Positions 5,977 through 25,268 of a stretch of 64,000 nucleotides of DNA are shown in pieces. Location of the stretch: NCBI RefSeq assembly GCF_057098645.1, contig NZ_CM169472.1; one strand, 5' to 3'. The notes under the pieces are model-generated. The model was given only the letters and a program-made list of their open reading frames with translations. It was not told where the DNA came from and did no database searches. The translations under genes and the position numbers were made by a program. Within the stretch, counting starts at the first letter, position 1. Every line of letters starts with the position of its first letter.

Positions 5977-6300
5977 ATGGCAAAGAATTTTGTAGAAGAA
6001 GGAAAAACGGTGGCGATTGTTGCCAGTGCAGCCATCAGCAGCGGAGATCTGGTGCAGGTGGGCGATGTTTTTGCGGTGGCGCTGACCGATATTCCACAGG
6101 GTGAAACAGGCGACGGCATGACCGAAGGTGTGTTTATGCTGCCTAAGCTGAAAACGGATGACATGAAAACGGGTAAGAAGGTTTATCTGAAGTCCGGAAA
6201 AGTTCAGCTGACTAACAGCGGCTCTGATCCGCTGGTCGGGGTTGTCTGGGCAGATGCCGGAACCAGTGCAGAAGAAGTGCCGGTAAAACTCAATGTCTGA
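5977..6300 (+). CDS. Small phage head protein (DUF2190-like, possible decoration or head-completion protein)
   Basis: 107 aa from ATG 5977, preceded by GGAG. Lies right after the capsid gene. Family assignment is from memory and is weak. Confidence 0.4.
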   Translation: MAKNFVEEGKTVAIVASAAISSGDLVQVGDVFAVALTDIPQGETGDGMTEGVFMLPKLKTDDMKTGKKVYLKSGKVQLTNSGSDPLVGVVWADAGTSAEEVPVKLNV

Positions 6301-6568
6301 TCCCTTTTCCCGGCTGGCAGCGCGTATGGATGCTATCACGGTCAGAAAGATGGGAAAGACAGCCTCGATTAATGATGTCGATATGACTGTGATCCCGGGA
6401 GAAACACTGGCAGAACTGAATGCTCTGTCCGGACCTGCGGTCTCTCTGGTGGTGTTTTCTTCGGGATACCGCCCACGGCGCGGGGATCGCGTTGTTTATG
6501 ACGGACAACAATGGACGGTCACACGGCATGAACGCTTTAACGGTAAGCCAATGATCTTTATTGAGTAA
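6293..6568 (+). CDS. Head-tail connector protein (gpFII-like)
   Basis: 91 aa, translationally coupled to the previous gene (ATG 6293 overlaps its stop). It sits between head and tail genes and has an RRGDRV motif similar to lambda FII RRGDTL. Confidence 0.5.
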   Translation: MSDPFSRLAARMDAITVRKMGKTASINDVDMTVIPGETLAELNALSGPAVSLVVFSSGYRPRRGDRVVYDGQQWTVTRHERFNGKPMIFIE

Positions 6569-6579
6569 AGAGGTGTGGG

Positions 6580-7158
6580 ATGAAGGGGCTTGAGAATGCC
6601 ATCCGTAATCTGAACAGCCTTGATACCCGTATGGTGCCACAGGCCAGCGCATGGGCGATAAACCGTGTGGCACAGAAAGCGGTCTCGGTTGCCACCCGGC
6701 AGGTTGCCGGGAATACCGTTGCGGGAGATAACCAGGTGAAAGGGATCCCCCTGAAACTGGTACGTCAGCGTGTCCGGGTGTTTAAAGCCAGTCCGTCAGG
6801 AAAAATGACGGCCAGGATCCGCGTTAACCGGGGCAATCTGCCCGCCATTAAGCTGGGGACAGCCCGGGTCAGACTGGCCCGGCGTGGTGGAAAACTGCAG
6901 TACCGTGGCAGTGTGCTGAAGGTGGGTAAATATCTTTTCCGGGATGCGTTTATTCAGCAACTGGCGAATGGTCGCTGGCATGTGATGCGGCGTATTGATG
7001 GCAAAAATCGTTACCCCATTGATGTGGTGAAAATCCCGCTTTCCGGACCGCTGACACAGGCATTTGAAGATGCCCGCGACCGCATCATTGCTGCGGAAAT
7101 GCCGAAACAGCTGGGGTATGCACTGAAACAACAACTGAGGTTATGGCTGACCCGATGA
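6580..7158 (+). CDS. Z: Tail completion protein Z
   Basis: 192 aa, the same length as lambda gpZ, with colinear similarity (NGRWHVM.R..GKNRYPIDVVKIP, LGYAL..QLR). Confidence 0.8.
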   Translation: MKGLENAIRNLNSLDTRMVPQASAWAINRVAQKAVSVATRQVAGNTVAGDNQVKGIPLKLVRQRVRVFKASPSGKMTARIRVNRGNLPAIKLGTARVRLARRGGKLQYRGSVLKVGKYLFRDAFIQQLANGRWHVMRRIDGKNRYPIDVVKIPLSGPLTQAFEDARDRIIAAEMPKQLGYALKQQLRLWLTR

Positions 7159-7556
7159 ACCGACATACACAAATCCGCCAGGCCGTACTGGCACGCCTTC
7201 GGGAACAGTGTGGAGACAGCGCCACGTTTTTTGACGGGCTTCCGGCATTTATTGATGCGCAGGAACTGCCTGCCGTGGCGGTGTGGCTGAGTGATGCTCA
7301 GTACACCGGAAAAATGACGGATGAAGATGACTGGCAGGCTGTTCTGCATATTGCTGTCTTCATCCGGGCACAGGCACCGGATTCAGAGCTGGATATGTGG
7401 ATGGAGAGCACCATTTTCCCGGCCCTGAATGATATACCGGCACTTTCCGGACTCATCGACACCCTGATCCCTCTCGGTTTTAACTATCAACGTGATAATG
7501 AGATGGCCACCTGGGCGATGGCGGAAATCACGTACCAGATCACGTACACGAATTAA
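7143..7556 (+). CDS. U: Tail terminator protein U
   Basis: 137 aa with lambda gpU-like motifs (ATFFDG, PAVAV.L, PDSELD.WMES, DIPALS). Confidence 0.8.
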   Translation: MADPMNRHTQIRQAVLARLREQCGDSATFFDGLPAFIDAQELPAVAVWLSDAQYTGKMTDEDDWQAVLHIAVFIRAQAPDSELDMWMESTIFPALNDIPALSGLIDTLIPLGFNYQRDNEMATWAMAEITYQITYTN

Positions 7557-13919: not shown

Positions 13920-14458
13920 AAACGGGGGCTGAAGCCATCCGCGCACTGGCCACACAGCTCCCGGCGTTTCGTCAGAAACTGAGCGACGGCTGGTATCAGG
14001 TACGGATTGCCGGGCGTGATGCAGGCGAAAATGAATTATCAGCCCGTCTTAATGAACCGCTGGCAAATGGTGCTGTGATCCATATCGTGCCGCGTCTGGC
14101 AGGAGCCAAAAGTGGCGGTGTGTTTCAGGCTGTGCTGGGGGCGGCTGTTATGGCGGTTGCTATATGGATGCCGGGGGTAGGAATTATGGCGAGTAATCTG
14201 CTGTTTTCTCTCGGTGCCAGTATGACGCTTGGCGGTGTTGCACAGATGCTGGCCCCTAAACCCAAAACCCCCCGCACACAGACAACGGATAACGGCAAAC
14301 AGAACACCTATTTTTCTTCACTGGATAATATGGTTGCCCAGGGCAATGTCCTGCCCGTTCTGTACGGTGAAATGCGTGTGGGGTCGCGGGTGGTATCTCA
14401 GGAGATCAGCACGGCAGATGAAGGTGATGGTGGTCAGGTTGTGGTGATTGGTCGCTGA
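13817..14458 (+). CDS. I: Tail tip assembly protein I
   Basis: 213 aa. Its N-terminus MAATHTLPLASPGMARICLYGDLQRFGRRIDLRV matches lambda gpI. It overlaps the K 3' end as in lambda. Confidence 0.85.
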   Translation: MAATHTLPLASPGMARICLYGDLQRFGRRIDLRVKTGAEAIRALATQLPAFRQKLSDGWYQVRIAGRDAGENELSARLNEPLANGAVIHIVPRLAGAKSGGVFQAVLGAAVMAVAIWMPGVGIMASNLLFSLGASMTLGGVAQMLAPKPKTPRTQTTDNGKQNTYFSSLDNMVAQGNVLPVLYGEMRVGSRVVSQEISTADEGDGGQVVVIGR

Positions 14459-14518
14459 TGAAAAATGTTTTATGTGAAACCGCCTGCGGGCGGTTTTGTC
14501 GTTTATGGAGCGTGACGA

Positions 14519-17500
14519 ATGGGTAAAGGCAGCAGTAAGGGGCATACCCCGCGCGAAGCGAAGGACAACCTGAAATCCACGCAGTTGCTGAGTGTGATTG
14601 ATGCCATCAGTGAAGGGCCGGTTGAAGGTCCGGTGGATGGATTAAAAAGCGTGCTGCTGAACAGTACGCCGGTGCTGGACAGTGAGGGGAATACCAACAT
14701 CGCCGGTGTCACGGTGGTGTTCCGGGCTGGTGAGCAGGAGCAGACTCCGCCGGAGGGATTTGAATCCTCCGGCTCCGAGACGGTGCTGGGTACGGAAGTG
14801 AAATACGACACGCCGATCACCCGCACCATCACGTCGGCAAACATCGACCGTCTGCGCTTTACCTTCGGTGTACAGGCACTGGTGGAAACCACCTCAAAGG
14901 GTGACAGGAATCCGTCGGAAGTCCGTCTGCTGGTTCAGATACAACGTAACGGTGGCTGGGTGACGGAAAAAGACATCACCATTAAGGGCAAAACCACCTC
15001 GCAGTATCTGGCCTCGGTGGTGGTGGGTAGCCTGCCGCCGCGCCCGTTTAATATCCGGATGCGCAGGATGACGCCGGACAGCACCACAGACCAGCTGCAG
15101 AACAAAACGCTCTGGTCGTCATACACCGAAATCATCGATGTGAAACAGTGCTACCCGAACACGGCACTGGTCGGCGTGCAGGTGGACTCGGAGCAGTTCG
15201 GCAGCCAGCAGGTGAGCCGTAATTATCATCTTCGCGGGCGCATTCTGCAGGTGCCGTCGAACTATAACCCGCAGACGCGGCAATACAGCGGTATCTGGGA
15301 CGGAACGTTAAAGCCAGCATACAGCAACAACATGGCCTGGTGTCTGTGGGATATGCTGACCCACCCGCGCTACGGCATGGGGAAACGTCTTGGTGCGGCG
15401 GATGTGGACAAATGGGCGCTGTATGTCATCGGCCAGTATTGCGACCAGTCGGTGCCGGACGGTTTTGGCGGCACGGAGTCGCGCATCACCTGTAACGCTT
15501 ACCTGACCACACAGCGTAAGGCGTGGGATGTTCTCAGTGATTTCTGCTCGGCGATGCGCTGTATGCCGGTATGGAACGGGCAGACGCTGACGTTCGTGCA
15601 GGACCGACCGTCGGATAAGGTGTGGACCTATAACCGCAGTAATGTGGTGATGCCGGATGATGGCGCGCCGTTCCGCTACAGTTTCAGCGCCCTGAAGGAC
15701 CGCCATAATGCCGTTGAGGTGAACTGGATTGACCCGAATAACGGCTGGGAGACGGCGACAGAGCTTGTGGAGGACACGCAGGCCATTCTCCGTTACGGTC
15801 GTAACGTCACGAAGATGGATGCCTTTGGCTGTACCAGCCGGGGGCAGGCACACCGCGCCGGGCTGTGGCTGATTAAAACGGAGCTGCTGGAAACGCAGAC
15901 TGTGGACTTCAGCGTGGGCGCAGAAGGGCTTCGCCATGTACCGGGCGATGTCATTGAAATCTGCGATGATGACTATGCGGGTATCAGCGTCGGCGGGCGC
16001 GTGCTTGCGGTAAACAGCCAGACCCGGACACTGACGCTCGACCGTGAAATCATGCTGCCATCCTCCGGAACCACGCTGATAAGCCTGGTTGACGGAAATG
16101 GCAATCCGGTCAGCGTGGAGGTCCAGTCCGTCACCGACGGCGTGAAGGTGAAAGTGAGCCGTGTTCCTGACGGCGTTGCCGAATACAGCGTGTGGGGGCT
16201 GAAGCTGCCGACGCTGCGCCAGCGCCTGTTCCGCTGCGTGAGTATCCGTGAGAACGATGACGGCACGTATGCCATCACCGCCGTGCAGCATGTACCGGAG
16301 AAAGAAGCCATCGTGGATAACGGGGCGCACTTTGACGGTGACCAGAGCGGCACGGTGAATGGTGTCACGCCGCCAGCAGTGCAGCACCTGACCGCCGAAG
16401 TCACTGCAGACAGCGGGGAATATCAGGTGCTGGCGCGATGGGACACACCGAAGGTGGTGAAGGGCGTGAGCTTCCTGCTCCGTCTGACCGTAACAGCGGA
16501 TGACGGCAGTGAGCGGCTGGTCAGCACGGCCCGGACGACGGAAACCACTTACCGCTTCACACAACTGGCGCTGGGGAACTACAGGCTGACAGTCCGGGCA
16601 GTAAATGCGTGGGGGCAGCAGGGCGATCCGGCGTCGGTATCGTTCCGGATTGCCGCACCGGCAGCGCCGTCGCGGATTGAGCTGACGCCGGGCTATTTTC
16701 AGATAACCGCCACGCCGCATCTTGCGGTTTATGATCCGACGGTACAGTTTGAGTTCTGGTTCTCGGAAAAGCGGATTGCGGATATCAGGCAGGTTGAAAC
16801 CACAGCACGCTATCTTGGCACGGCGCTGTACTGGATAGCCGCCAGTATCAATATCAAACCGGGCCATGATTATTACTTTTATATCCGCAGTGTGAACACC
16901 GTTGGCAAATCGGCATTCGTGGAGGCTGTTGGTCAGCCGAGTGATGATGCATCCGGTTATCTGGATTTTTTCAAAGGCGAGATAGGGAAAACCCATCTGG
17001 CTCAGGAGCTGTGGACGCAGATTGATAACGGTCAGCTTGCGCCTGACCTGGCTGAAATCAGGACGTCCATTACGGATGTCAGCAATGAAATCACGCAGAC
17101 CGTCAATAAGAAACTGGAAGACCAGAGTGCTGCAATTCAGCAGATACAGAAGGTTCAGGTTGATACAAATAATAACCTGAACAGCATGTGGGCTGTGAAG
17201 CTGCAGCAGATGCAGGACGGACGCCTTTATATCGCGGGTATTGGTGCCGGTATTGAGAATACCCCTGACGGCATGCAGAGTCAGGTGCTGCTGGCGGCGG
17301 ACAGGATTGCGATGGTTAATCCTGCGAATGGCAACACAAAACCGATGTTTGTTGGTCAGGGCGATCAGATATTCATGAACGACGTGTTCCTGAAACGCCT
17401 GACGGCTCCCACCATTACCAGCGGTGGAAATCCGCCGGCATTTTCCCTGACACCAGACGGAAAGCTGACCGCTAAAAATGCGGATATCAGCGGTAATGTG

Positions 17501-18001
17501 AATGCAAATTCAGGGACGCTCAACAATGTCACGATTAATGAAAACTGTCAGATTAAGGGGAAACTGTCAGCCAATCAGATTGAAGGCGATATTGTCAAAA
17601 CGGTCAGCAAGTCTTTCCCCTGCACGAACAGTTATGCCAGTGGCACCATCACGGTAAGAATCAGTGATGATCAGAAATTTGACCGGCAGGTCATGATACC
17701 GCCAGTGTTATTCCGCGGTGGTAAGCATGAGAATTTCAACAGTAATAACCAACAGTCATACTGGTATTCAACCTGCCGGTTAAGAGTGACCCGCAATGGT
17801 CAGGAGATTTTTAAGCAGTCCACGACGGATGCTCAGGGCGTATTTTCCTCAGTTATAGATATGCCTGCCGGACAGGGGACGCTGACACTGACATTCACCG
17901 TATCTTCATCAGGAGCGAATAACTGGACACCAACAACCAGTATCAGCGATCTGCTGGTTGTGGTGATGAAAAAATCCACAGCAGGTATCAGTATCAGCTG
18001 A
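14519..18001 (+). CDS. J: Tip attachment / host specificity protein J
   Basis: 1160 aa in the lambda J position after I, with SD GGAG upstream. Receptor specificity of the C-terminus cannot be assigned from sequence. Confidence 0.9.
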
Positions 18002-18019
18002 ATTTTATAACCCAGAACG

Positions 18020-18043
18020 GGCGTCAGAAATGACGCCTTTTTT
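18020..18043 (+). terminator. Rho-independent terminator after J
   Basis: GGCGTCA-GAAA-TGACGCC followed by TTTTTT. Confidence 0.7.
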
Positions 18044-18067
18044 ATTGCAGAAAAGCGAGAGGTAATT

Positions 18068-18667
18068 ATGCGTAAACTTTATGCCGCCATTTTGTCCGCA
18101 GCCATTTGTCTGGCCGTATCCGGTGCGCCTGCATGGGCGTCTGAACATCAGTCCACGCTGAGCGCGGGGTATCTTCATGCCCGGACGAACGTTCCCGGCG
18201 GTGATGATCTGAACGGGATTAACGTGAAATACCGTTATGAGTTTACGGACACACTGGGGATGGTGACGTCGTTCAGCTATGCAGGAGACAAGAATCGCCA
18301 GATTACCCGTTACAGCGATACCCGCTGGCATGAAGATTCCATTCGTAACCGCTGGTTCAGCGTAATGGCGGGGCCGTCTGTGCGCGTGAATGAATGGTTC
18401 AGCGCGTATGCGATGGCGGGTGTGGCTTACAGCCGTGTGTCGACTTTCTCCGGGGATTATCTCCGCGTAACTGACAACAAGGGGAAAAAGCACGATGTGC
18501 TGACCGGAAGTGATGACGGTCGCCACAGCAACACGTCTCTGGCGTGGGGAGCTGGCGTGCAGTTTAACCCGACCGAATCCGTGGCCATTGATGTCGCTTA
18601 TGAAGGCTCCGGCAGTGGTGACTGGCGCACTGACGGTTTCATCGTGGGTGTCGGTTATAAATTCTGA
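18068..18667 (+). CDS. lom: Lom outer-membrane protein (Ail/PagC/Lom family) moron
   Basis: 199 aa with signal peptide. The C-terminus [25 protein letters not shown] matches lambda Lom. Own SD GAGAGG. Confidence 0.85.
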
Positions 18668-18693
18668 TTAGCCAGGTAACACAGTGTTATGAC

Positions 18694-18720
18694 AGCCCGC
18701 CGGTTCAGGCGGGCTTTTTT
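18694..18720 (+). terminator. Rho-independent terminator after lom
   Basis: AGCCCGCC-GGTTCAG-GCGGGCT followed by TTTTTT. Confidence 0.75.
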
Positions 18721-18725
18721 GTGGG

Positions 18726-21700
18726 GTGAATATGGCAGTAAAGATTTCAGGTGTACTGAAAGACGGCACAGGAAAACCGGTACAGAACTGCACAATCCAG
18801 CTGAAAGCAAAACGTAACAGCACCACGGTGGTGGTGAACACGCTGGCCTCAGAAAATCCGGATGAAGCCGGGCGTTACAGCATGGACGTTGAGTACGGGC
18901 AGTACAGCGTTATTCTGTTGGTGGAGGGATTCCCGCCGTCACATGCCGGGACCATCACCGTGTATGAAGATTCCCGACCCGGTACGCTGAATGATTTTCT
19001 CGGTGCCATGACGGAGGATGATGCCCGTCCTGAGGCACTGCGCCGTTTTGAACTGATGGTGGAAGAGGTGGCGCGTAACGCGTCCGCGGTGGCACAGAAC
19101 ACGGCAGCCGCGAAGAAGTCAGCCAGCGATGCCGGCACATCAGCCCGTGAGGCGGCAACCCATGCGACTGATGCTGCAGGCTCAGCACGCGCAGCCAGCA
19201 CGTCAGCCGGACAGGCCGCGTCGTCGGCTCAGTCAGCGTCTTCCAGCGCAGGAACGGCATCAACAAAGGCCAGTGAAGCATCGAAAAGTGCTGCTGCTGC
19301 AGAGTCCTCAAAAAGCGCGGCGGCTACCAGTGCCGGTGCGGCGAAAACGTCAGAAACGAATGCTGCAGCGTCACAAAAATCTGCAGCCACTTCTGCATCC
19401 ACCGCGACCACGAAAGCGTCAGAAGCTGCCACCTCAGCCCGGGATGCAGCGGCCTCAAAAGAGGCAGCGAAATCATCAGAAACGAGCGCAGCCTCGAGCG
19501 CCAGTAATGCCGCTTCCTCGGCAACAGCGGCAGGAAATTCCGCGAAGGCGGCAAAAACGTCCGAGACGAACGCCAGGTCTTCTGAAACGGCAGCGGAACA
19601 GAGCGCCTCAGCTGCGGCAGACTCTGAGACAACAGCTGCATCATCGGCCCGTGAGGCGTCCATTAAGGCAGAGGAGGCAGCAGTCAGTGCCACCGCCGCC
19701 GGAAAATCGGCAGAAAGCGCCGCATCATCCGCTTCAACAGCCACAACGAAGGCTGGCGAAGCCACTGAACAGGCCAGCGCAGCAGCGAGGTCTGCTTCCG
19801 CAGCGAAGACATCCGAAACGAACGCGAAAGCGTCGGAAACCAGCGCAGAATCCTCAAAAACGGCTGCCGCATCGTCCGCCAGTTCGGCGGCGTCATCGGC
19901 ATCATCGGCGTCTGCTTCAAAAGATGAGGCGACCAGACAGGCGTCAGCAGCGAGGGGCAGCGCCACGACGGCATCCACGAAGGCGACAGAGGCTGCTGGC
20001 AGTGCGGCAGCGGCAGCACAGAGCAAAAGTACGGCAGAATCCGCAGCAACGCGCGCCGAGACAGCAGCAAAACGGGCAGAGGATATTGCATCCGCCGTGG
20101 CGCTTGAGGATGCGAGCACGACGAAAAAGGGGATAGTACAGCTCAGCAGTGCGACCAACAGCACTTCCGAGTCACTGGCGGCAACGCCAAAAGCCGTTAA
20201 GGCCGCGTATGACCTGGCTAACGGGAAATACACCGCACAGGATGCAACGACAGCACAGAAAGGGATAATCCAGCTAAGCAGCGCGACCAACAGCACGTCT
20301 GAAACGCTGGCGGCAACGCCAAAGGCAGTAAAAGCAGCCAATGACAATGCTGAGAAACGTCTGCAGAAAGATCAGAACGGTGCGGATATCCCTGGCAAAG
20401 ACACCTTTACGAAAAATATTGGTGCCTGCCGTGCCTTCGGTGGGTCAGTAAGCACAACAACAGGAAACTGGACGACTGCACAGTTTATCGAGTGGCTGGA
20501 TTCTCAGGGAGCATTTAACCATCCATACTGGATGTGCAAGGGTTCCTGGTCTTATGGCAATAATAAAATCATTACTGATACTGGCTGCGGTAATATTCAT
20601 CTCGCCGGAGCTGTCATTGAAGTAATGGGGATAAAGTCAGCGATGACGATCCGCATTACCACACCGACCACCTCCACTGGTGGTGGAACAACTAACGCCC
20701 AGTTTACCTATATTAATCACGGAACAGATTATTCACCTGGCTGGCGAAGGGACTATAACTCCAGAAATAAGCCAACGGCATCAGAGATCGGGGCGTTACC
20801 GTCAGGTGGAACAGCAGTATCATCAGTTAATCTGTCTTCAAAAGGTCGGGTAACCGCGCTGACAGACAATACGCAGGGGGCAACAGGTCTTGAGTTATAC
20901 GAGGTGTATAACAACGGATATCCAACAGCGTATGGAAATATCATTCACCTGAAAGGGATGACAGCCGTTGGCGAAGGTGAGTTACTCATCGGCTGGAGTG
21001 GTACAAGCGGTGCTCATGCTCCGGCATTTATTCGTTCACGACGGGATACGACCGACGCAAACTGGTCGCCGTGGGCGCAGCTTTACACCTCGGCTCATCC
21101 TCCTGCAGAGTTTTATCCAGTCGGTGCACCAATCCCGTGGCCATCAGATACCGTTCCGTCTGGTTATGCCCTGATGCAGGGGCAGACTTTTGACAAATCT
21201 GCTTACCCGAAACTTGCAGCCGCTTATCCGTCAGGCGTGATCCCTGATATGCGTGGCTGGACGATTAAGGGCAAGCCCGCCAGTGATCGAGCCGTATTGT
21301 CTCAGGAACAGGACGGCATTAAATCACACACCCACAGCGCCAGCGTATCCAGTACGGATTTGGGGACGAAAACCACATCGTCGTTTGATTACGGCACTAA
21401 ATCCACGAATAACACTGGTGCGCATACCCATAGTGTTAGCGGTACGGCTGCTTCAGCCGGTGCACATACCCATTCGATGACATTTGTTTCAGGTGGTTCC
21501 AGTGGTGCTCCGGGAAGTGGATCACCTGATTACTCTAAATACAGTGTTAACACTTCTTCTGCAGGCGCTCATACGCACTCTGTATCGGGTACTGCTGCAA
21601 GCGCAGGTGCACACGCACATACTGTCGGTATTGGTGCTCATACGCACTCCGTTGCGATTGGTTCACATGGACATACCATCACCGTTAACGCTGCTGGTAA

Positions 21701-21755
21701 CGCGGAAAACACCGTCAAAAACATCGCATTTAACTATATTGTGAGGCTTGCATAA
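18726..21755 (+). CDS. stf: Side tail fiber protein Stf (mosaic)
   Basis: 1009 aa. N-terminus [26 protein letters not shown] and the His-rich C-terminus ([55 protein letters not shown]) match lambda Stf. The middle carries an Ala/Ser-rich shaft and an extra Cys-containing domain. Confidence 0.85.
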
Positions 21756-22336
21756 TGGCATTCAGAATGAGTGAACAACCACGGACCATAAAAATTTATA
21801 ATCTGCTGGCCGGAACTAATGAATTTATTGGTGAAGGTGACGCATATATTCCGCCTCATACAGGTCTGCCTGTAAACAGTACCTATATTGCACCGCCAGA
21901 TATTCCGGCTGGTTTCGTGGCTGTTTTCAACAGTGATGAGTCATCGTGGCATCTCGTTGAAGATCATCGGGGTAAAACGGTTTATGACGTGGCTTCCGGC
22001 GACGCGTTATTTATTTCTGAACTCGGTCCGTTACCGGAAAATGTTACCTGGTTATCGCCGGAAGGGGAGTTTCAGAAGTGGAACGGCACAGCCTGGTTGA
22101 AGGATACGGAAGCAGAAAAACTGTTCCGGATCCGGGAGGCGGAAGAAACAAAAAACAACCTGATGCAGGTAGCCAGTGAGCATATTGCGCCGCTTCAGGA
22201 TGCTGCAGATCTGGAAATTGCAACGGAGGAAGAAATCTCGTTGCTGGAAGCATGGAAAAAGTATCGGGTATTGCTGAACCGTGTTGATACATCAACTGCA
22301 CCTGATATTGAGTGGCCAGCAGCACCTGTAGGATAA
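21755..22336 (+). CDS. tfa: Tail fiber assembly protein Tfa
   Basis: 193 aa, near-identical to lambda Tfa as I recall it ([39 protein letters not shown]). Confidence 0.9.
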
Positions 22337-22436
22337 AACAAAAACTTTATATAGAGTGCTCTTTTTACAATGTCAGATAAATGCTGGCCGAAATGTAATT
22401 CATTAGAAGTAAAAAACAGAATGGTTTGAGGGTGTG

Positions 22437-22480
22437 TCATCCCTTTATTATTAATAGTGAAAGGGATGACATTCTTTTTT
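22437..22480 (+). terminator. Rho-independent terminator downstream of tfa
   Basis: 11-bp stem GTCATCCCTTT / AAAGGGATGAC with a 12-nt loop, followed by ATTCTTTTTT. Confidence 0.7.
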
Positions 22481-22676
22481 AAGGAGTGTCTTTTTTATCG
22501 GAATATAAGTTGAGATAATGTTTAACTCGATTATAAAAATGTTTTTTCTTATCTCTTGGAATGCTTACTATTATATGCATTATGGGGCTTGTGTTTGCCG
22601 ATAATTTAGCTGATGCATACATTGAAGCAAGGAATTCAATATCAGTATTGTCAAAATTAAAACTTTCTCCATCCAT
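22479..22676 (-). CDS. Hypothetical 65-aa protein (orphan moron ORF)
   Basis: ORF in low-GC DNA with a plausible SD (AAGGA 8 nt before the ATG on the minus strand). No recognisable motif. Confidence 0.35.
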   Translation of the reverse strand: MDGESFNFDNTDIEFLASMYASAKLSANTSPIMHIIVSIPRDKKKHFYNRVKHYLNLYSDKKDTP

Positions 22677-22982
22677 TTCAATTCCTTATGTGTTTGGCTC
22701 GGTATACTGTATCCCATGAGATTTTACGTAAATTGTCATATCTAATATTGCAATTATAATTGTAGCTAATTATTTTAAATTAGGTGAAAGTTTATTGCGA
22801 ATGATTAACTCGGAAAAAAAGATTTCTCACGGTTAGTAAGTATATTAGGTCAGTATTCAGATATGAGTAGTGTTAACGACTAAATTTGCAATCACATATA
22901 GATTTTTGTTCTAATAAAGATGTTTTATTTGGCGATTCGTCAAGCATCTCCACTTAAGCAATCGTATATATTAAGAGTGCAA

Positions 22983-23078
22983 AAGAGAAGGGACAACGTT
23001 GCTCGCACTCTGGAATAAATATCGGGTATTGTTAAAGTGTGGTGATACATAATTGTACGGGATATTGAGTGGCCTGAA
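22983..23078 (+). pseudogene. Decayed second copy of the tfa 3' end
   Basis: CTGGAATAAATATCGGGTATTG...GATACAT...GATATTGAGTGGCC aligns to the tfa 3' end at about 22240-22330 (CTGGAAGCATGGAAAAAGTATCGGGTATTG...GATACATCA...GATATTGAGTGGCC), but with an in-frame stop and an indel. Confidence 0.5.
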
Positions 23079-23213
23079 GTCCCAGTCATTGAGTAATCTT
23101 TTCGTGATATGCCGCAGAAACGTTGTATGCAGGAACGTGCTGCGGCTAACTGGTGAACTTTCGATAGTGCGGGTATTGAATGATTTCCAGCCGTTACCGA
23201 TTTTACGTGCTAA

Positions 23214-23462
23214 TTAGTGAACAAACCACTCGTCAGCAGACTCCCAGGTATCTTTCAGAGTTTCCTGAACAAAAGTTTTAGCTGAATCTTTATCGGCAGT
23301 GCGCGTAACAGAAAGGCCATCGTTGCTGGTGGTTTTTACGATCACCTCTACATCGTCATAACGCTTACTGATGCGTCGAGTTAATTCTTCCTTTAACGCA
23401 TCCACAGCACCGTTTGGCATTTTAGTCATTTTCTCTTTGGCTATGCAGATCTCAATACGCAT
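23214..23462 (-). CDS. DinI-like SOS protein
   Basis: 82 aa. The N-terminal MRIE..IAK and C-terminal [16 protein letters not shown] match E. coli DinI (MRIEVTIAK ... ILQETWESADDWFV). SD GAGGG upstream on the minus strand. Confidence 0.85.
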
Positions 23463-23475
23463 AAAAATCCCTCTA

Positions 23476-23495
23476 CACTGTGTTTGTATACAGTA
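23476..23495. promoter_or_regulatory. LexA box 1 (SOS operator) upstream of the dinI-like gene
   Basis: CACTGTGTTTGTATACAGTA, which fits CTG-N10-CAG and the consensus TACTGTATATATATACAGTA. Lies 16 bp upstream of the dinI-like start. Confidence 0.7.
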
Positions 23496-23503
23496 TTATT
23501 TTT

Positions 23504-23523
23504 AACTGTATGAATAAACAGTG
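23504..23523. promoter_or_regulatory. LexA box 2 (SOS operator)
   Basis: AACTGTATGAATAAACAGTG, fits CTG-N10-CAG. Its centre is 28 bp from box 1. Confidence 0.65.
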
Positions 23524-23681
23524 TCAATAGAACAAAGATTGCTGCATGTACAAATGTTCTTTGGCTACAAATACACCTACTGATCATGTTCTGCTATGCT
23601 CTGATACCTCCAAAATGTACAATCAGCGGCATGAATTTTTCTTTGTACATATGATTGTACATAATCAAAGAGACAACAATT

Positions 23682-25268
23682 ATGACAAGCCTTTTGGCCG
23701 CAGAGGTAGCGAAAAGAAGAACCTTTGCAATTATTTCTCACCCGGACGCCGGTAAGACTACCATCACCGAGAAGGTGCTGCTGTTCGGACAGGCCATTCA
23801 GACTGCCGGTACAGTAAAAGGCCGTGGTTCCAACCAGCACGCTAAGTCGGACTGGATGGAGATGGAAAAGCAGCGTGGGATCTCCATTACTACGTCTGTG
23901 ATGCAGTTTCCGTATCACGATTGCCTGGTTAACCTGCTCGACACCCCGGGGCACGAAGACTTCTCGGAAGATACCTACCGTACCCTGACGGCGGTGGACT
24001 GCTGCCTGATGGTTATCGACGCCGCAAAAGGTGTTGAAGATCGTACCCGTAAGCTGATGGAAGTTACCCGTCTGCGCGACACGCCGATCCTCACCTTTAT
24101 GAACAAACTTGACCGTGATATCCGCGACCCGATGGAATTGCTCGATGAAGTTGAGAACGAGCTGAAAATTGGCTGCGCACCGATCACCTGGCCAATTGGC
24201 TGCGGCAAGCTGTTTAAAGGCGTTTACCACCTTTATAAAGATGAAACCTATCTCTATCAGAGCGGTAAAGGGCACACCATTCAGGAAGTCCGCATTGTTA
24301 AAGGGCTGAATAACCCGGATCTCGATGCTGCGGTTGGTGAAGATCTGGCACAGCAGCTGCGTGACGAACTGGAACTGGTTAAAGGCGCGTCTAACGAGTT
24401 CGACAAAGAGCTGTTCCTTGCGGGCGAAATCACTCCGGTATTCTTCGGTACTGCGCTGGGTAACTTCGGCGTTGATCATATGCTGGATGGCCTGGTGGAG
24501 TGGGCGCCTGCGCCGATGCCGCGTCAGACCGATACCCGTACCGTAGAAGCGAGCGAAGATAAATTTACCGGCTTCGTATTTAAAATTCAGGCCAACATGG
24601 ACCCGAAACACCGCGACCGCGTGGCGTTTATGCGTGTGGTGTCCGGTAAATATGAAAAAGGCATGAAACTGCGCCAGGTGCGCACTGCGAAAGATGTGGT
24701 GATCTCCGACGCGCTGACCTTTATGGCGGGTGACCGTTCGCACGTTGAAGAAGCGTATCCGGGCGATATCCTCGGCCTGCACAACCACGGCACCATTCAG
24801 ATCGGCGACACCTTTACCCAGGGTGAGATGATGAAGTTCACCGGTATTCCGAACTTCGCACCAGAACTGTTCCGTCGTATCCGCCTGAAAGATCCGCTGA
24901 AGCAAAAACAGCTGCTCAAAGGGCTGGTACAGCTTTCCGAAGAGGGCGCGGTGCAGGTGTTCCGTCCAATCTCCAACAACGATCTGATCGTTGGTGCAGT
25001 TGGTGTGCTGCAGTTTGATGTGGTGGTAGCGCGCCTGAAGAGCGAATACAACGTTGAAGCAGTGTATGAGTCAGTCAACGTTGCCACTGCCCGCTGGGTA
25101 GAATGTGCAGACGCGAAGAAATTCGAAGAGTTCAAGCGTAAGAACGAAAGCCAACTGGCGCTTGATGGCGGCGATAACCTCGCTTACATCGCTACCAGCA
25201 TGGTCAACCTGCGCCTGGCACAGGAACGTTATCCGGACGTTCAGTTCCACCAGACCCGCGAGCATTAA
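23682..25268 (+). CDS. prfC: Peptide chain release factor 3
   Basis: 528 aa with the GTPase motifs [12 protein letters not shown] and DTPGHEDF. Beyond the first ~9 residues it matches K-12 RF3 as I recall it. Start chosen at ATG 23682 (MTSLLAAEV); the ORF-track start at 23655 is an extension. Confidence 0.95.

Follow-up and report, generated by a model that had tools for sequence, protein, structure and literature searches.

A mosaic side tail fibre gene, probably intact and of a known type, in a lambda-like Escherichia coli prophage

The side tail fibre gene stf lies in the late operon of a lambdoid prophage of Escherichia coli, within the 64,000-nucleotide stretch of DNA that was analysed as a whole (here called the window). 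The gene order is J, lom, stf, and tfa; the genes stand at the right end of the prophage, which adjoins prfC, and the late operon was annotated without pseudogenes from terminase to J. The stf open reading frame was found to be genuine and uninterrupted, encoding 1,007 amino acids from an ATG codon (MAVKISG...), and the product matched the tail fibre family PHROG 295 (E 6e-253). A preliminary description of this DNA had the span of the reading frame right but began it at a GTG codon at 18726 (1,009 amino acids). This start was not retained, as the RefSeq coding sequence WP_124062279.1 begins at the ATG at 18732, as does lambda Stf at the equivalent position. Residue numbers are counted from this ATG; the in-frame GTG at 18726 adds two codons. 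The features discussed below are as follows.

14519-18001, late operon: J
18068-18667, late operon: lom
18732..21755, + strand: stf, side tail fibre gene, 1,007 amino acids (open reading frame list, RefSeq WP_124062279.1, lambda Stf start, PHROG 295)
18732..19133, + strand: N-terminal anchor domain, residues 1-134 (Pfam PF08400, phage_tail_N)
19062..20111, + strand: Ala/Ser heptad shaft, residues ~111-460, consensus xxAxxSA, ~48 heptads (autocorrelation, DNA repeat spacing)
19641..19955, + strand: extra shaft segment, residues 304-408, without lambda counterpart (global alignments)
20115..20237, + strand: Phage_fiber_2 copy 1, residues 462-502, core KGIVQLSS...AVK at 20127-20201 (Pfam PF03406), colinear with the single copy of lambda
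20247..20369, + strand: Phage_fiber_2 copy 2, residues ~506-546, core at 20259-20333 (Pfam), first element of the block replacing the lambda middle
20343..20423, + strand: conserved junction motif, 27 residues (538-564), common to StfR and the P2, P1, and Mu fibres
20424..20801, + strand: module A, residues 565-690, Cys-containing alpha/beta globular domain of the Mu S' (gp52)/P1 S type (PDB 8JU3, AF2, Foldseek, PHROG)
20826..21107, + strand: module B, residues ~699-792, all-beta knob with the signature RSRRD...WSxW...YTS
21111..21755, + strand: T4 gp37-type collar and needle, residues 794-1007, with seven HxH motifs (PDB 2XGF, Pfam Collar PF07484)
21474..21557, + strand: tip subdomain, residues 915-942, 28 residues, equivalent to T4 gp37 932-959, proposed receptor-contact site (positional alignment, hypervariability)
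21755..22336, + strand: tfa, tail fibre assembly chaperone, 193 amino acids (Pfam Caudo_TAP, E 3e-43; PHROG 105)

Both the N terminus and the neighbourhood place the protein in the lambdoid Stf family: PF08400 matched over its full length at residues 1-134 (E 1e-71), the gene follows J and lom and precedes tfa, and the proximal shaft is long. The first 94 residues are ~94% identical (88 of 94 aligned) to the lambda Stf collar domain in PDB 9E7M chain Ta (E 1e-51), in keeping with the lambda-like N terminus described earlier. The tfa gene is intact, and its start overlaps the stf stop codon. Tfa is 94 to 97% identical to lambda Tfa (94%), TfaR, and TfaQ; such conservation across alleles with different tips is expected of a chaperone that recognises a conserved needle. 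Two long open reading frames in other frames over the shaft (19129-20136 on the + strand and 19229-20347 on the − strand) were regarded as side effects of the GCN/TCN-rich repeat.

The architecture of the Ur-lambda Stf and its role with OmpC have been reported, with residues 1-91 forming a collar around the tail and residues 102-393 a coiled coil (PMC12617516). Ur-lambda Stf (774 amino acids) occupies the same position in the late operon and was used as the reference for alignment. Colinearity with the window protein was observed at residues 1-303, at 409-491, and in the collar and needle (794-1007 versus lambda 529-774, 67% identity). The 233-residue excess over lambda is composed of 105 additional residues in the shaft, a net gain of 160 in the middle (302 for 142), and a loss of 32 in the needle.

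The shaft is a run of uninterrupted heptads and not random low complexity. Residues 135-455 consist of 38% Ala, 24% Ser, and 12% Thr; identity autocorrelation was ~0.40 when the lag was a multiple of 7 and ~0.19 otherwise, giving a heptad excess of 0.205 versus 0.000 ± 0.009 in 500 shuffles (~23 standard deviations above). DNA repeats in this region are spaced at multiples of 21 nucleotides, and no Pfam family was found at E ≤ 10 for the shaft or for isolated segments of the middle region. The shaft aligned colinearly with the lambda coiled coil at 102-393, and by this analogy it would be the equivalent of the Ur-lambda proximal coiled coil. The extra segment (residues 304-408) has 105 residues, exactly 15 heptads, and is also present in StfR, ATCC 8739, PhiR42_1, and PhiR29_2. 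The Ala/Ser-rich shaft noted earlier is real, but lambda has the same heptad coiled coil, 15 heptads shorter, and the two differ in length rather than in kind.

Downstream of the shaft, the ~42-residue Phage_fiber_2 repeat (PF03406, 25-residue core) matched two stretches (E 6e-37, over the 22-bit cutoff), with a period of 44 residues (132 nucleotides) and a 107-nucleotide direct repeat 77% identical at 132-nucleotide spacing. A motif present twice at 20119-20350 had been described previously, and both cores fall inside that interval; lambda has one copy. A recent tandem duplication in situ was considered as the origin of the pair and rejected: the copies are only 77 to 81% identical in DNA, their 25 core codons differ by 10 synonymous and 2 nonsynonymous changes, and copy 2 aligns with a Mu/P2-type repeat and junction. 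Copy 2 matched Mu S in its constant part (residues 98-173 of 5YVQ/8JU3) and was absent from the alignments of PhiR29_2, StfR, and lambda. PhiR29_2 is short by exactly one 44-residue unit, and the single copies of StfR and PhiR29_2 are hybrids of copies 1 and 2 with differing crossover points, a pattern that points to recombination at the repeat. The repeat is followed by the junction motif, the DNA of which matches P2-like and P1-like fibres; alignment with StfR covers residues 1-565 and diverges right after this motif.

Pairwise alignment to lambda Stf, which had been put forward as a check on the middle region, showed that this region is not colinear with lambda. The alignment indicates a replacement rather than an insertion: a 302-residue block (492-793) takes the place of lambda residues 387-528 (142 residues, comprising the hinge and the distal coiled coil). 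The block consists of the second Phage_fiber_2 repeat, the junction motif, the Cys-containing module A, and the all-beta module B. An extra Cys-containing segment of ~230 residues had been proposed; the cysteines are there (C566 in ACRAF, C602 in WMCKGSW, and C619 in GCGNIH, plus C20), but an inserted domain of that size is not, since the segment lies within the 302-residue replacement and the 233-residue excess is split over three regions. The broader proposal of a mosaic Stf was borne out by the alignment, the ends being lambda-like and the middle unrelated.

Module A matched PDB 8JU3 with an E value of 3e-85, the domain at 541-697 aligning to 178-334 (domain E 5e-69, ~75% identity). This entry is the crystal structure of the tail fibre S'/gp52 of Mu G(-), from Mori et al. 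2024, Virology 593:110017, as cited in PMC11915804. The AF2 model of module A had a pLDDT of 85 to 95, and the only Foldseek match was again 8JU3 (E 8e-18, 74% identity, 137 columns); PHROG matches were 21834, 26292, and 6722. Among ~100 distinct homologue fragments, C602 and C619 were jointly lost in 2, and another pair of cysteines, aligned with G604 and A627, co-occurred in 37. This covariation is compatible with contacts between the cysteines, although it is confounded by relatedness among the fragments.

Module B shares ~99% identity with the StfQ remnant of K-12, in the N-terminal part of the latter. When residues 538-798 were modelled by AF2 on a 35-sequence alignment, module B had a pLDDT of <50; a deeper, domain-specific alignment resolved it as a high-confidence all-beta structure whose closest folds came from the C-terminal region of T4 gp34, the fibre of R2 pyocin, and the Mu(-) fibre. 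On this model, the fold may be nearest to the T4 gp34 knob domains. The Pfam family PF21446 (Gp34_trimer) scored 15.7 bits at 654-713, under its cutoff of 27, and did not match isolated segments. A single-sequence search of the PDB with module B gave no matches, and a profile search gave only a chance-level likeness to the leptin receptor, in its WSxWS region (E 0.12). Remote homology between modules A and B was not supported, as hhalign, given the B and A+B profiles, recovered nothing beyond the trivial match of B to itself. Both modules match overlapping coordinates in PHROGs 454 and 2631.

[quoted passage not shown] Pfam Collar (PF07484) matched at 798-845 (E 7e-12), and phmmer aligned the needle with PDB 2XGF at E 5e-86 (796-1009 on chain 28-242). 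The collar and needle are 69 to 75% identical to T4 gp37 over ~213 residues (69% by tblastn), and the seven HxH motifs (866, 898, 912, 947, 961, 970, and 979) are all in register with the seven of 2XGF. In T4 gp37, there are seven iron sites, and mutagenesis showed that the tip subdomain at 932-959 is critical for function (PMC6957217); by analogy, the HxH sites of the window protein would also bind iron. T4 gp37 differs in the remainder of the protein and in the type of phage that carries it, the tip sequence is largely unrelated, and T4 uses the chaperones gp38/gp57, versus a lambda-like Tfa here. Compared with lambda, the needle has seven HxH motifs rather than eight, one SFDYGTK repeat fewer, and an unrelated tip subdomain.

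The tip subdomain sits between the third and fourth HxH motifs, aligned to T4 H929/H931...H966/H968, and is 2 residues shorter than in T4. It has few residues in common with the tip of either T4 or lambda and is hypervariable among the window/ATCC 8739, PhiR42_1, PhiR29_2, StfR, StfQ, and lambda. In PhiR42_1, PhiR29_2, and K-12 StfQ, the tip loop is unrelated to that of the window, although module A and/or B is nearly identical. This pattern suggests that residues 915-942 are the likely specificity determinant, with a presumed role in receptor contact. A receptor specificity unlike that of lambda, as proposed earlier, is plausible on the same comparisons, and it would point to the tip and not to the Cys-containing module, since alleles with nearly identical middle modules differ at the tip.

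The gene has close relatives in prophages and in isolated phages. The intact Stf at the Qin locus of E. coli ATCC 8739 is of equal length and 97.8% identical, with residues 427-1007 identical. The K-12 StfQ (Qin) remnant, truncated to 320 amino acids, matches residues 707-1007 (84% overall) and has a nearly identical module B and a longer, different tip loop. StfR of Rac matches residues 1-565 (86%) and 766-1007 (81%); it has one repeat copy, and its middle (StfR 522-875) is different and larger. The window gene belongs to a prophage at prfC rather than at the Qin or Rac site, and no pin gene adjoins it. Among phages, PhiR42_1, mEp460_ev081, PhiR26_1, PhiR68_2, and PhiR29_1/2 share the module order, with stf DNA 95 to 98% identical, and the PhiR42_1 and PhiR29_2 proteins are 90 to 94% identical to the window protein. 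The tip loops of these isolated lambdoid phages differ (best tip match 89%, PhiR29), and PhiR29_2 has one repeat copy. No description of the fibres of the PhiR and mEp460 phages was found in a literature search. The gene was present in 637 of 5,426 complete E. coli genomes (~1 in 8) and the whole 302-residue block in 799 of the 5,426. The gene is not novel; its modules are all known from lambda, Mu/P1, and T4, and for each there is an established family or a relative of solved structure.

Taken as a whole, the locus very probably holds an intact but ordinary Stf of a lambda-like E. coli prophage, of the type left as the StfQ and StfR remnants in K-12. The existence of those remnants raises the question of whether the window gene might itself be a relic in a decaying prophage without a working fibre: StfQ is truncated, StfR resides in the defective Rac, and lambda PaPa lost Stf by a frameshift (annotations; PMC12617516). 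This is very unlikely here, given the uninterrupted 1,007-codon frame, the intact overlapping tfa, the late operon free of annotated pseudogenes, and the 10 synonymous versus 2 nonsynonymous differences between the motif copies, which imply purifying selection. Furthermore, near-identical genes (95 to 98%) are carried by the plaque-forming isolates PhiR42_1, mEp460_ev081, and PhiR26_1. The Mu S'-like module could also be read as the mark of a remnant or active Gin/Cin/Pin-type inversion system that alternates fibre C termini. The homologue of module A does belong to the invertible G segment of Mu, and relatives carry a recombinase directly after tfa (pinQ in ATCC 8739, pinR in Rac, and a serine recombinase in PhiR42_1). 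From tfa to prfC, however, there is no recombinase gene, and the window contains no inverted alternative fibre or tfa cassette. The best match to gix/hix crossover sites had 10 of 26 mismatches, with no AAACCnnGGTTT core in 14000-24000. An inversion system at this locus was rejected as barely credible: the locus has the module in common with such systems but does not belong to them. In Mu, a myovirus, the module forms part of the distal, invertible, host-range-determining region of the G(-) fibre and precedes a different C terminus; module A of the window is internal and is followed by the gp37-type needle.

The most serious competitor to an ordinary Stf with a single receptor-binding tip is a bispecific fibre, in which module A, module B, or both would form a second, lateral receptor-binding site (for a lipopolysaccharide sugar, for example), so that replacement of the middle would alter host range. 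Module A is a compact globular domain and not a shaft, its homologue lies within the variable, host-range-determining S' of the Mu G(-) fibre, and the fold class of module B is that of knobs in receptor-binding fibres (R-pyocin fibres and staphylococcal phage receptor-binding proteins). The modules are also widely shuffled among fibres, in either order (PHROG 6722). Several observations nevertheless make this reading improbable. Modules A and B are highly conserved, with at least 99% DNA identity in 1,157 of 1,608 matching records; alleles in which they are nearly identical differ mainly at the tip loop, as expected if the tip is under diversifying selection. Both lie ~100 to 330 residues ahead of the distal end, Pfam revealed no ligand-binding signature, and the similar domains of T4 gp34 are structural shaft elements. 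The more specific version, in which knob A (perhaps with B) is the lateral site and the near-invariant C602/C619 pair forms a disulfide or metal site and so keeps the extracellular knob stable, is slightly less probable still. For the ordinary Stf favoured here, we infer that the roles of modules A and B are purely structural.

A working model of the ordinary fibre can be drawn from these comparisons. The structure models are of monomers, and assembly as a trimer, with three chains per fibre, is proposed by analogy with Ur-lambda. The N-terminal ~91 residues would build a collar anchoring the fibres on the tail, and an Ala-core coiled coil of ~48 heptads would form the proximal shaft. The two fibre repeats and the junction motif would then lead into two globular knobs (A, of the Mu S'/P1 type; B, resembling the knobs of T4 gp34), and the fibre would end in the T4 gp37-type collar and needle, held by seven His6-iron sites. 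Reversible contact of the 28-residue tip (915-942) with a surface receptor may speed adsorption ahead of irreversible binding by J, and Tfa would start trimer folding from the C terminus. The gene itself would be a recombinational mosaic, its modules exchanged with the fibre genes of Mu, P1, P2, and T-even phages at conserved motifs.

Mosaicism of tail fibres across the lambdoid, P2/P1/Mu, and T-even phages is well-established textbook material. The present gene carries little weight as a discovery, and its practical value is modest. The window/ATCC 8739, PhiR42_1, PhiR29_2, StfQ, and StfR fibres do constitute a natural series in which shaft length, repeat number, and a tip loop of 28 to 50 residues vary on a near-constant scaffold. 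Such a series may help in the design of lambda-type delivery particles that carry exchanged Stf tips, or in mapping the receptor specificity of gp37-type needles.

An open reading frame on the plus strand at window 18726-21755 was present as the preliminary description had it. The frame opens with GTG; the ATG six bases 3' of it is the start annotated by RefSeq in E. coli YPE10 and also used by lambda Stf, and residues are numbered from it here. E. coli YPE10 and EH08-18-36 carry the gene with 100% identity in their chromosomes. The order J, lom, stf, tfa, followed by a DinI-like gene and then prfC, identifies the locus as the right end of a lambdoid prophage.

Genes and starts at the stf locus (window coordinates)
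14519-18001: J, 5' of lom
18068-18667: lom, between J and stf
18726-21755, plus strand: stf open reading frame from GTG, 1009 aa
18732, plus strand: stf start at ATG (MAVKISG...), 1007 aa
21755-22336: tfa, 3' of stf

The J tip-attachment protein in the window has 1160 aa and a full set of J domains, with Pfam Ig_GpJ_C at 1036-1160 as its C-terminal receptor-binding domain; lambda J has 1132 aa. Between lom and the stf start lies a strong G+C-rich hairpin (18694-18715) in which 7 of the 8 pairs are G-C; with the T run behind it, it resembles an intrinsic terminator within the late operon, which Q-antiterminated transcription would presumably read through, as in lambda. From tfa to the DinI-like gene, ∼900 bp (22340-23210) are AT-rich (30 to 38% G+C) and look like foreign, moron-type DNA, the sole open reading frame being a 65-aa RefSeq "hypothetical" on the minus strand (22479-22676). 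Near prfC, where the prophage ends, two LexA-box-like palindromes, CTGT-N8-ACAG (ACTGTGTTTGTATACAGT and ACTGTATGAATAAACAGT, within 23470-23525), stand directly upstream of the DinI-like gene (23214-23462, minus strand) and suggest that a prophage-borne dinI homologue may be under SOS regulation.

Global alignment to Ur-lambda Stf (774 aa, from LC730321) resolved the protein into five blocks.

Window Stf against lambda Stf (residues)
1-303 and lambda 1-303: colinear, high similarity
304-408, no lambda counterpart: 105 additional shaft residues
409-491 and lambda 304-386: colinear
492-793 (302 aa) and lambda 387-528 (142 aa): real similarity absent
794-1007 and lambda 529-774: colinear, 67% identity

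This alignment had been set beforehand as the comparison able to refute a non-lambda middle, and residues 492-793 showed no real similarity to lambda 387-528. The Cys-containing middle thus differs from lambda as proposed; a single inserted domain of ∼230 aa is ruled out, because the 233-aa excess in length splits into +105, +160, and −32. Lambda Stf consists of a collar domain (1-91), a linker (92-101), a proximal coiled coil (102-393), a hinge (394-422), a distal coiled coil (423-525), and a gp37-like receptor-binding domain that engages OmpC (PMC12617516). In the window Stf the collar is kept (∼94% identical to PDB 9E7M over 94 aa), the proximal coiled coil is longer, the hinge and distal coiled coil are swapped for other modules, and the gp37-like end is retained. 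Relative to lambda 529-774, this end has one SFDYGTK repeat fewer and seven HxH motifs where lambda has eight, and its loop from HxH 3 to HxH 4 is unrelated.

The shaft has the Ala/Ser-rich composition noted earlier (38% Ala, 24% Ser over residues 135-455); it is a strict heptad repeat rather than random low-complexity sequence. Approximately 48 unbroken heptads, xxAxxSA, place Ala at positions three and seven, and identity autocorrelation is ∼0.40 at all multiples of 7 and ∼0.19 elsewhere (heptad excess, 0.205 compared to 0.000 ± 0.009 for shuffles). Repeats in the DNA are spaced at multiples of 21 nt. Since the 105 residues without a lambda counterpart are exactly 15 heptads, the register is preserved; at ∼0.15 nm per residue they would lengthen the shaft by ∼16 nm. 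The long shaft is shared with StfR, ATCC 8739, PhiR42_1, and PhiR29_2. Two long other-frame open reading frames cover the shaft (19129-20136, plus strand, 335 aa; 19229-20347, minus strand, 372 aa) and translate to Arg/Pro/Gln-rich or Ala-rich nonsense; they were rejected as genes and most likely arise from the heptad repeat as by-products of its GCN/TCN codon composition.

Both copies of the reported duplicated motif, KGI(V/I)...(S/T)LAATPKAVK, were located.

Copies of the duplicated motif (window nucleotides)
20127-20201, plus strand: copy 1
20259-20333, plus strand: copy 2

The pair corresponds to Pfam Phage_fiber_2 repeats with a period of 44 aa, and the Pfam E values for the pair (6e-37), the N-terminal domain (1e-71), and the collar (7e-12) show that these matches are not due to chance. 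The copies share 77% DNA identity over 107 nt and 81% over a 75-nt core, in whose 25 codons 10 differences are synonymous and 2 are nonsynonymous. These values rule out a recent tandem duplication and indicate an old pair under purifying selection. Lambda's single copy is colinear with copy 1, while copy 2 and the junction motif (the conserved 27 aa that follow it, 538-564) align to P2-like fibre genes and, in the Mu S fibre, to its constant part (residues 98-173 of 5YVQ/8JU3). The 44-aa unit occurs twice in the window, ATCC 8739, and PhiR42_1 and once in PhiR29_2 and StfR; PhiR29_2 Stf (compared stretch L004, 1254-4154) is otherwise 90% identical and lacks exactly one unit. The single copies of PhiR29_2 and StfR (K-12 stfR, stretch L006, 2050-5412) are hybrids that resemble copy 1 at their 5' end and copy 2 at their 3' end, and the crossover point differs between them. 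This polymorphism in copy number, together with hybrids of differing crossover, is direct evidence, from sequence, that fibre modules use the motif as a recombination site.

Two modules follow the junction. Module A (565-690) contains the cysteine motifs of the preliminary description, at C566, C602, and C619, the cysteines in the middle of Stf. Residues 539-695 match 8JU3, the crystallised Mu G(-) tail fibre (chain name "Tail fiber protein S, Tail fiber protein S'"), with a domain E value of 5e-69 and ∼75% identity that includes WMCKGSW and GCGN; PMC11821841 and PMC11915804 (the latter citing Mori et al. 2024) describe 8JU3 as gp52, the fibre of Mu's G(-) orientation. In an AlphaFold2 model of 538-798, module A has a mixed alpha/beta fold (pLDDT, 85 to 95), for which 8JU3 was the only significant PDB match in Foldseek (E, 8e-18). 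P1-like, P2-like, and Mu-like phages carry the module at 72 to 78% DNA identity, and Photorhabdus fibres have it in tandem copies. C602 and C619 are nearly invariant across ∼100 distinct homologue fragments, two of which have lost both, while C566 is frequently Ala, Gly, or Ser.

Module B (∼699-792) had no relative by PDB sequence search and no Pfam family. It is nevertheless widespread among fibres: at E ≤ 1e-3 its relatives form 656 representative clusters, the proteins reach 2183 aa, and some have two or three copies, and the K-12 StfQ remnant (320 aa) begins nearly identically to it. AlphaFold2 with a 50-sequence alignment gave a confident all-beta model (pLDDT, 89; pTM, 0.79).

Structure matches of module B (score)
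T4 gp34 C-terminal region (5NXH): 7.9
Acinetobacter phage tailspike (6EU4): 7.4
R2 pyocin fibre (6CL6): 7.1
Mu(-) fibre (8JU3): 6.6

Foldseek agreed (gp34: probability 1.0; TMq, 0.61; E, 6e-3). Pfam Gp34_trimer scored 15.7 bits against a cut-off of 27, so homology to gp34 is not established, and the predicted structure is read as a generic phage-fibre knob fold. A conserved signature in module B (window 20805-21125), V/I-RS-K/R-RD...WS-x-W...YT, resembles the F-G strand WSxWS of cytokine-receptor fibronectin-III domains; likeness to the leptin receptor was at chance level (E, 0.12) and was rejected, the predicted fold fitting phage fibre knobs.

Residues 794-1007 align with 2XGF, the structure of the T4 gp37 tip (E, 5e-86), and tblastn gave 69% identity to T4 gp37. 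The proposed gp37-type tip held up: each of the seven HxH motifs aligned to one of T4's seven, which coordinate seven iron ions (PMC6957217), and the window needle would bind iron likewise. In T4, tip subdomain 932-959 contains residues essential for LPS and OmpC binding (PMC6957217); its equivalent here, 915-942, is 2 aa shorter and largely unrelated in sequence. ATCC 8739 Stf is identical to the window Stf from residue 427 to the end, whereas PhiR42_1, PhiR29_2, StfR, StfQ, and lambda each have their own tip loop, of differing length, on a nearly constant scaffold; the best match to the C-terminal region among isolated phages was 89%. Tfa is 94 to 97% identical across alleles with differing tips, which fits a chaperone that would recognise the conserved needle, not the loop. 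A receptor other than lambda's, as proposed, is plausible, with the determinant most likely in the tip (915-942) rather than in the Cys module.

Modules A and B are most simply regarded as structural knobs gained by recombination at the conserved repeat and junction, with a passive role. That they instead form a second binding site is retained as an improbable alternative because the module A homologue sits in the host-range-determining S' part of Mu; what speaks against this reading is the high conservation of the knobs beside a diversifying tip. A relic gene is unlikely, and so is an inversion switch of fibre ends: the window prophage has no Pin-type recombinase after tfa. Relatives of the locus do carry such a serine recombinase gene (pinQ, pinR) right after tfa on the opposite strand, and no invertible fibre cassette lay beside the pin-type genes in the stretches examined (ATCC 8739, PhiR42_1, and Rac).

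Pin-type recombinase genes in compared stretches
L005 (ATCC 8739): 6703-7293
L002 (PhiR42_1): 6751-7341
L006 (Rac): 6085-6675

In ATCC 8739 the allele occupies the Qin locus, with tfaQ and pinQ as neighbours, and the window gene thus represents the StfQ-type fibre of K-12 in intact form. Of 5426 complete E. coli genomes, 637 have full-length matches (at least 80% coverage), 5179 match in some part, and 799 match the block of junction motif plus modules A and B taken alone; isolated phages carry genes 95 to 98% identical, with the annotation side tail fibre.

That lambdoid, P2/P1/Mu, and T-even phages exchange fibre modules in mosaic fashion has long been established. The mosaic Stf is real and was correctly spotted, but fibres of this kind, with almost this sequence, were known before. 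By analogy to Ur-lambda Stf, we conclude that it probably acts as a working side tail fibre, in which the collar would carry a coiled-coil shaft ending in a distal receptor-binding needle, and reversible binding to the receptor would speed adsorption ahead of J action.
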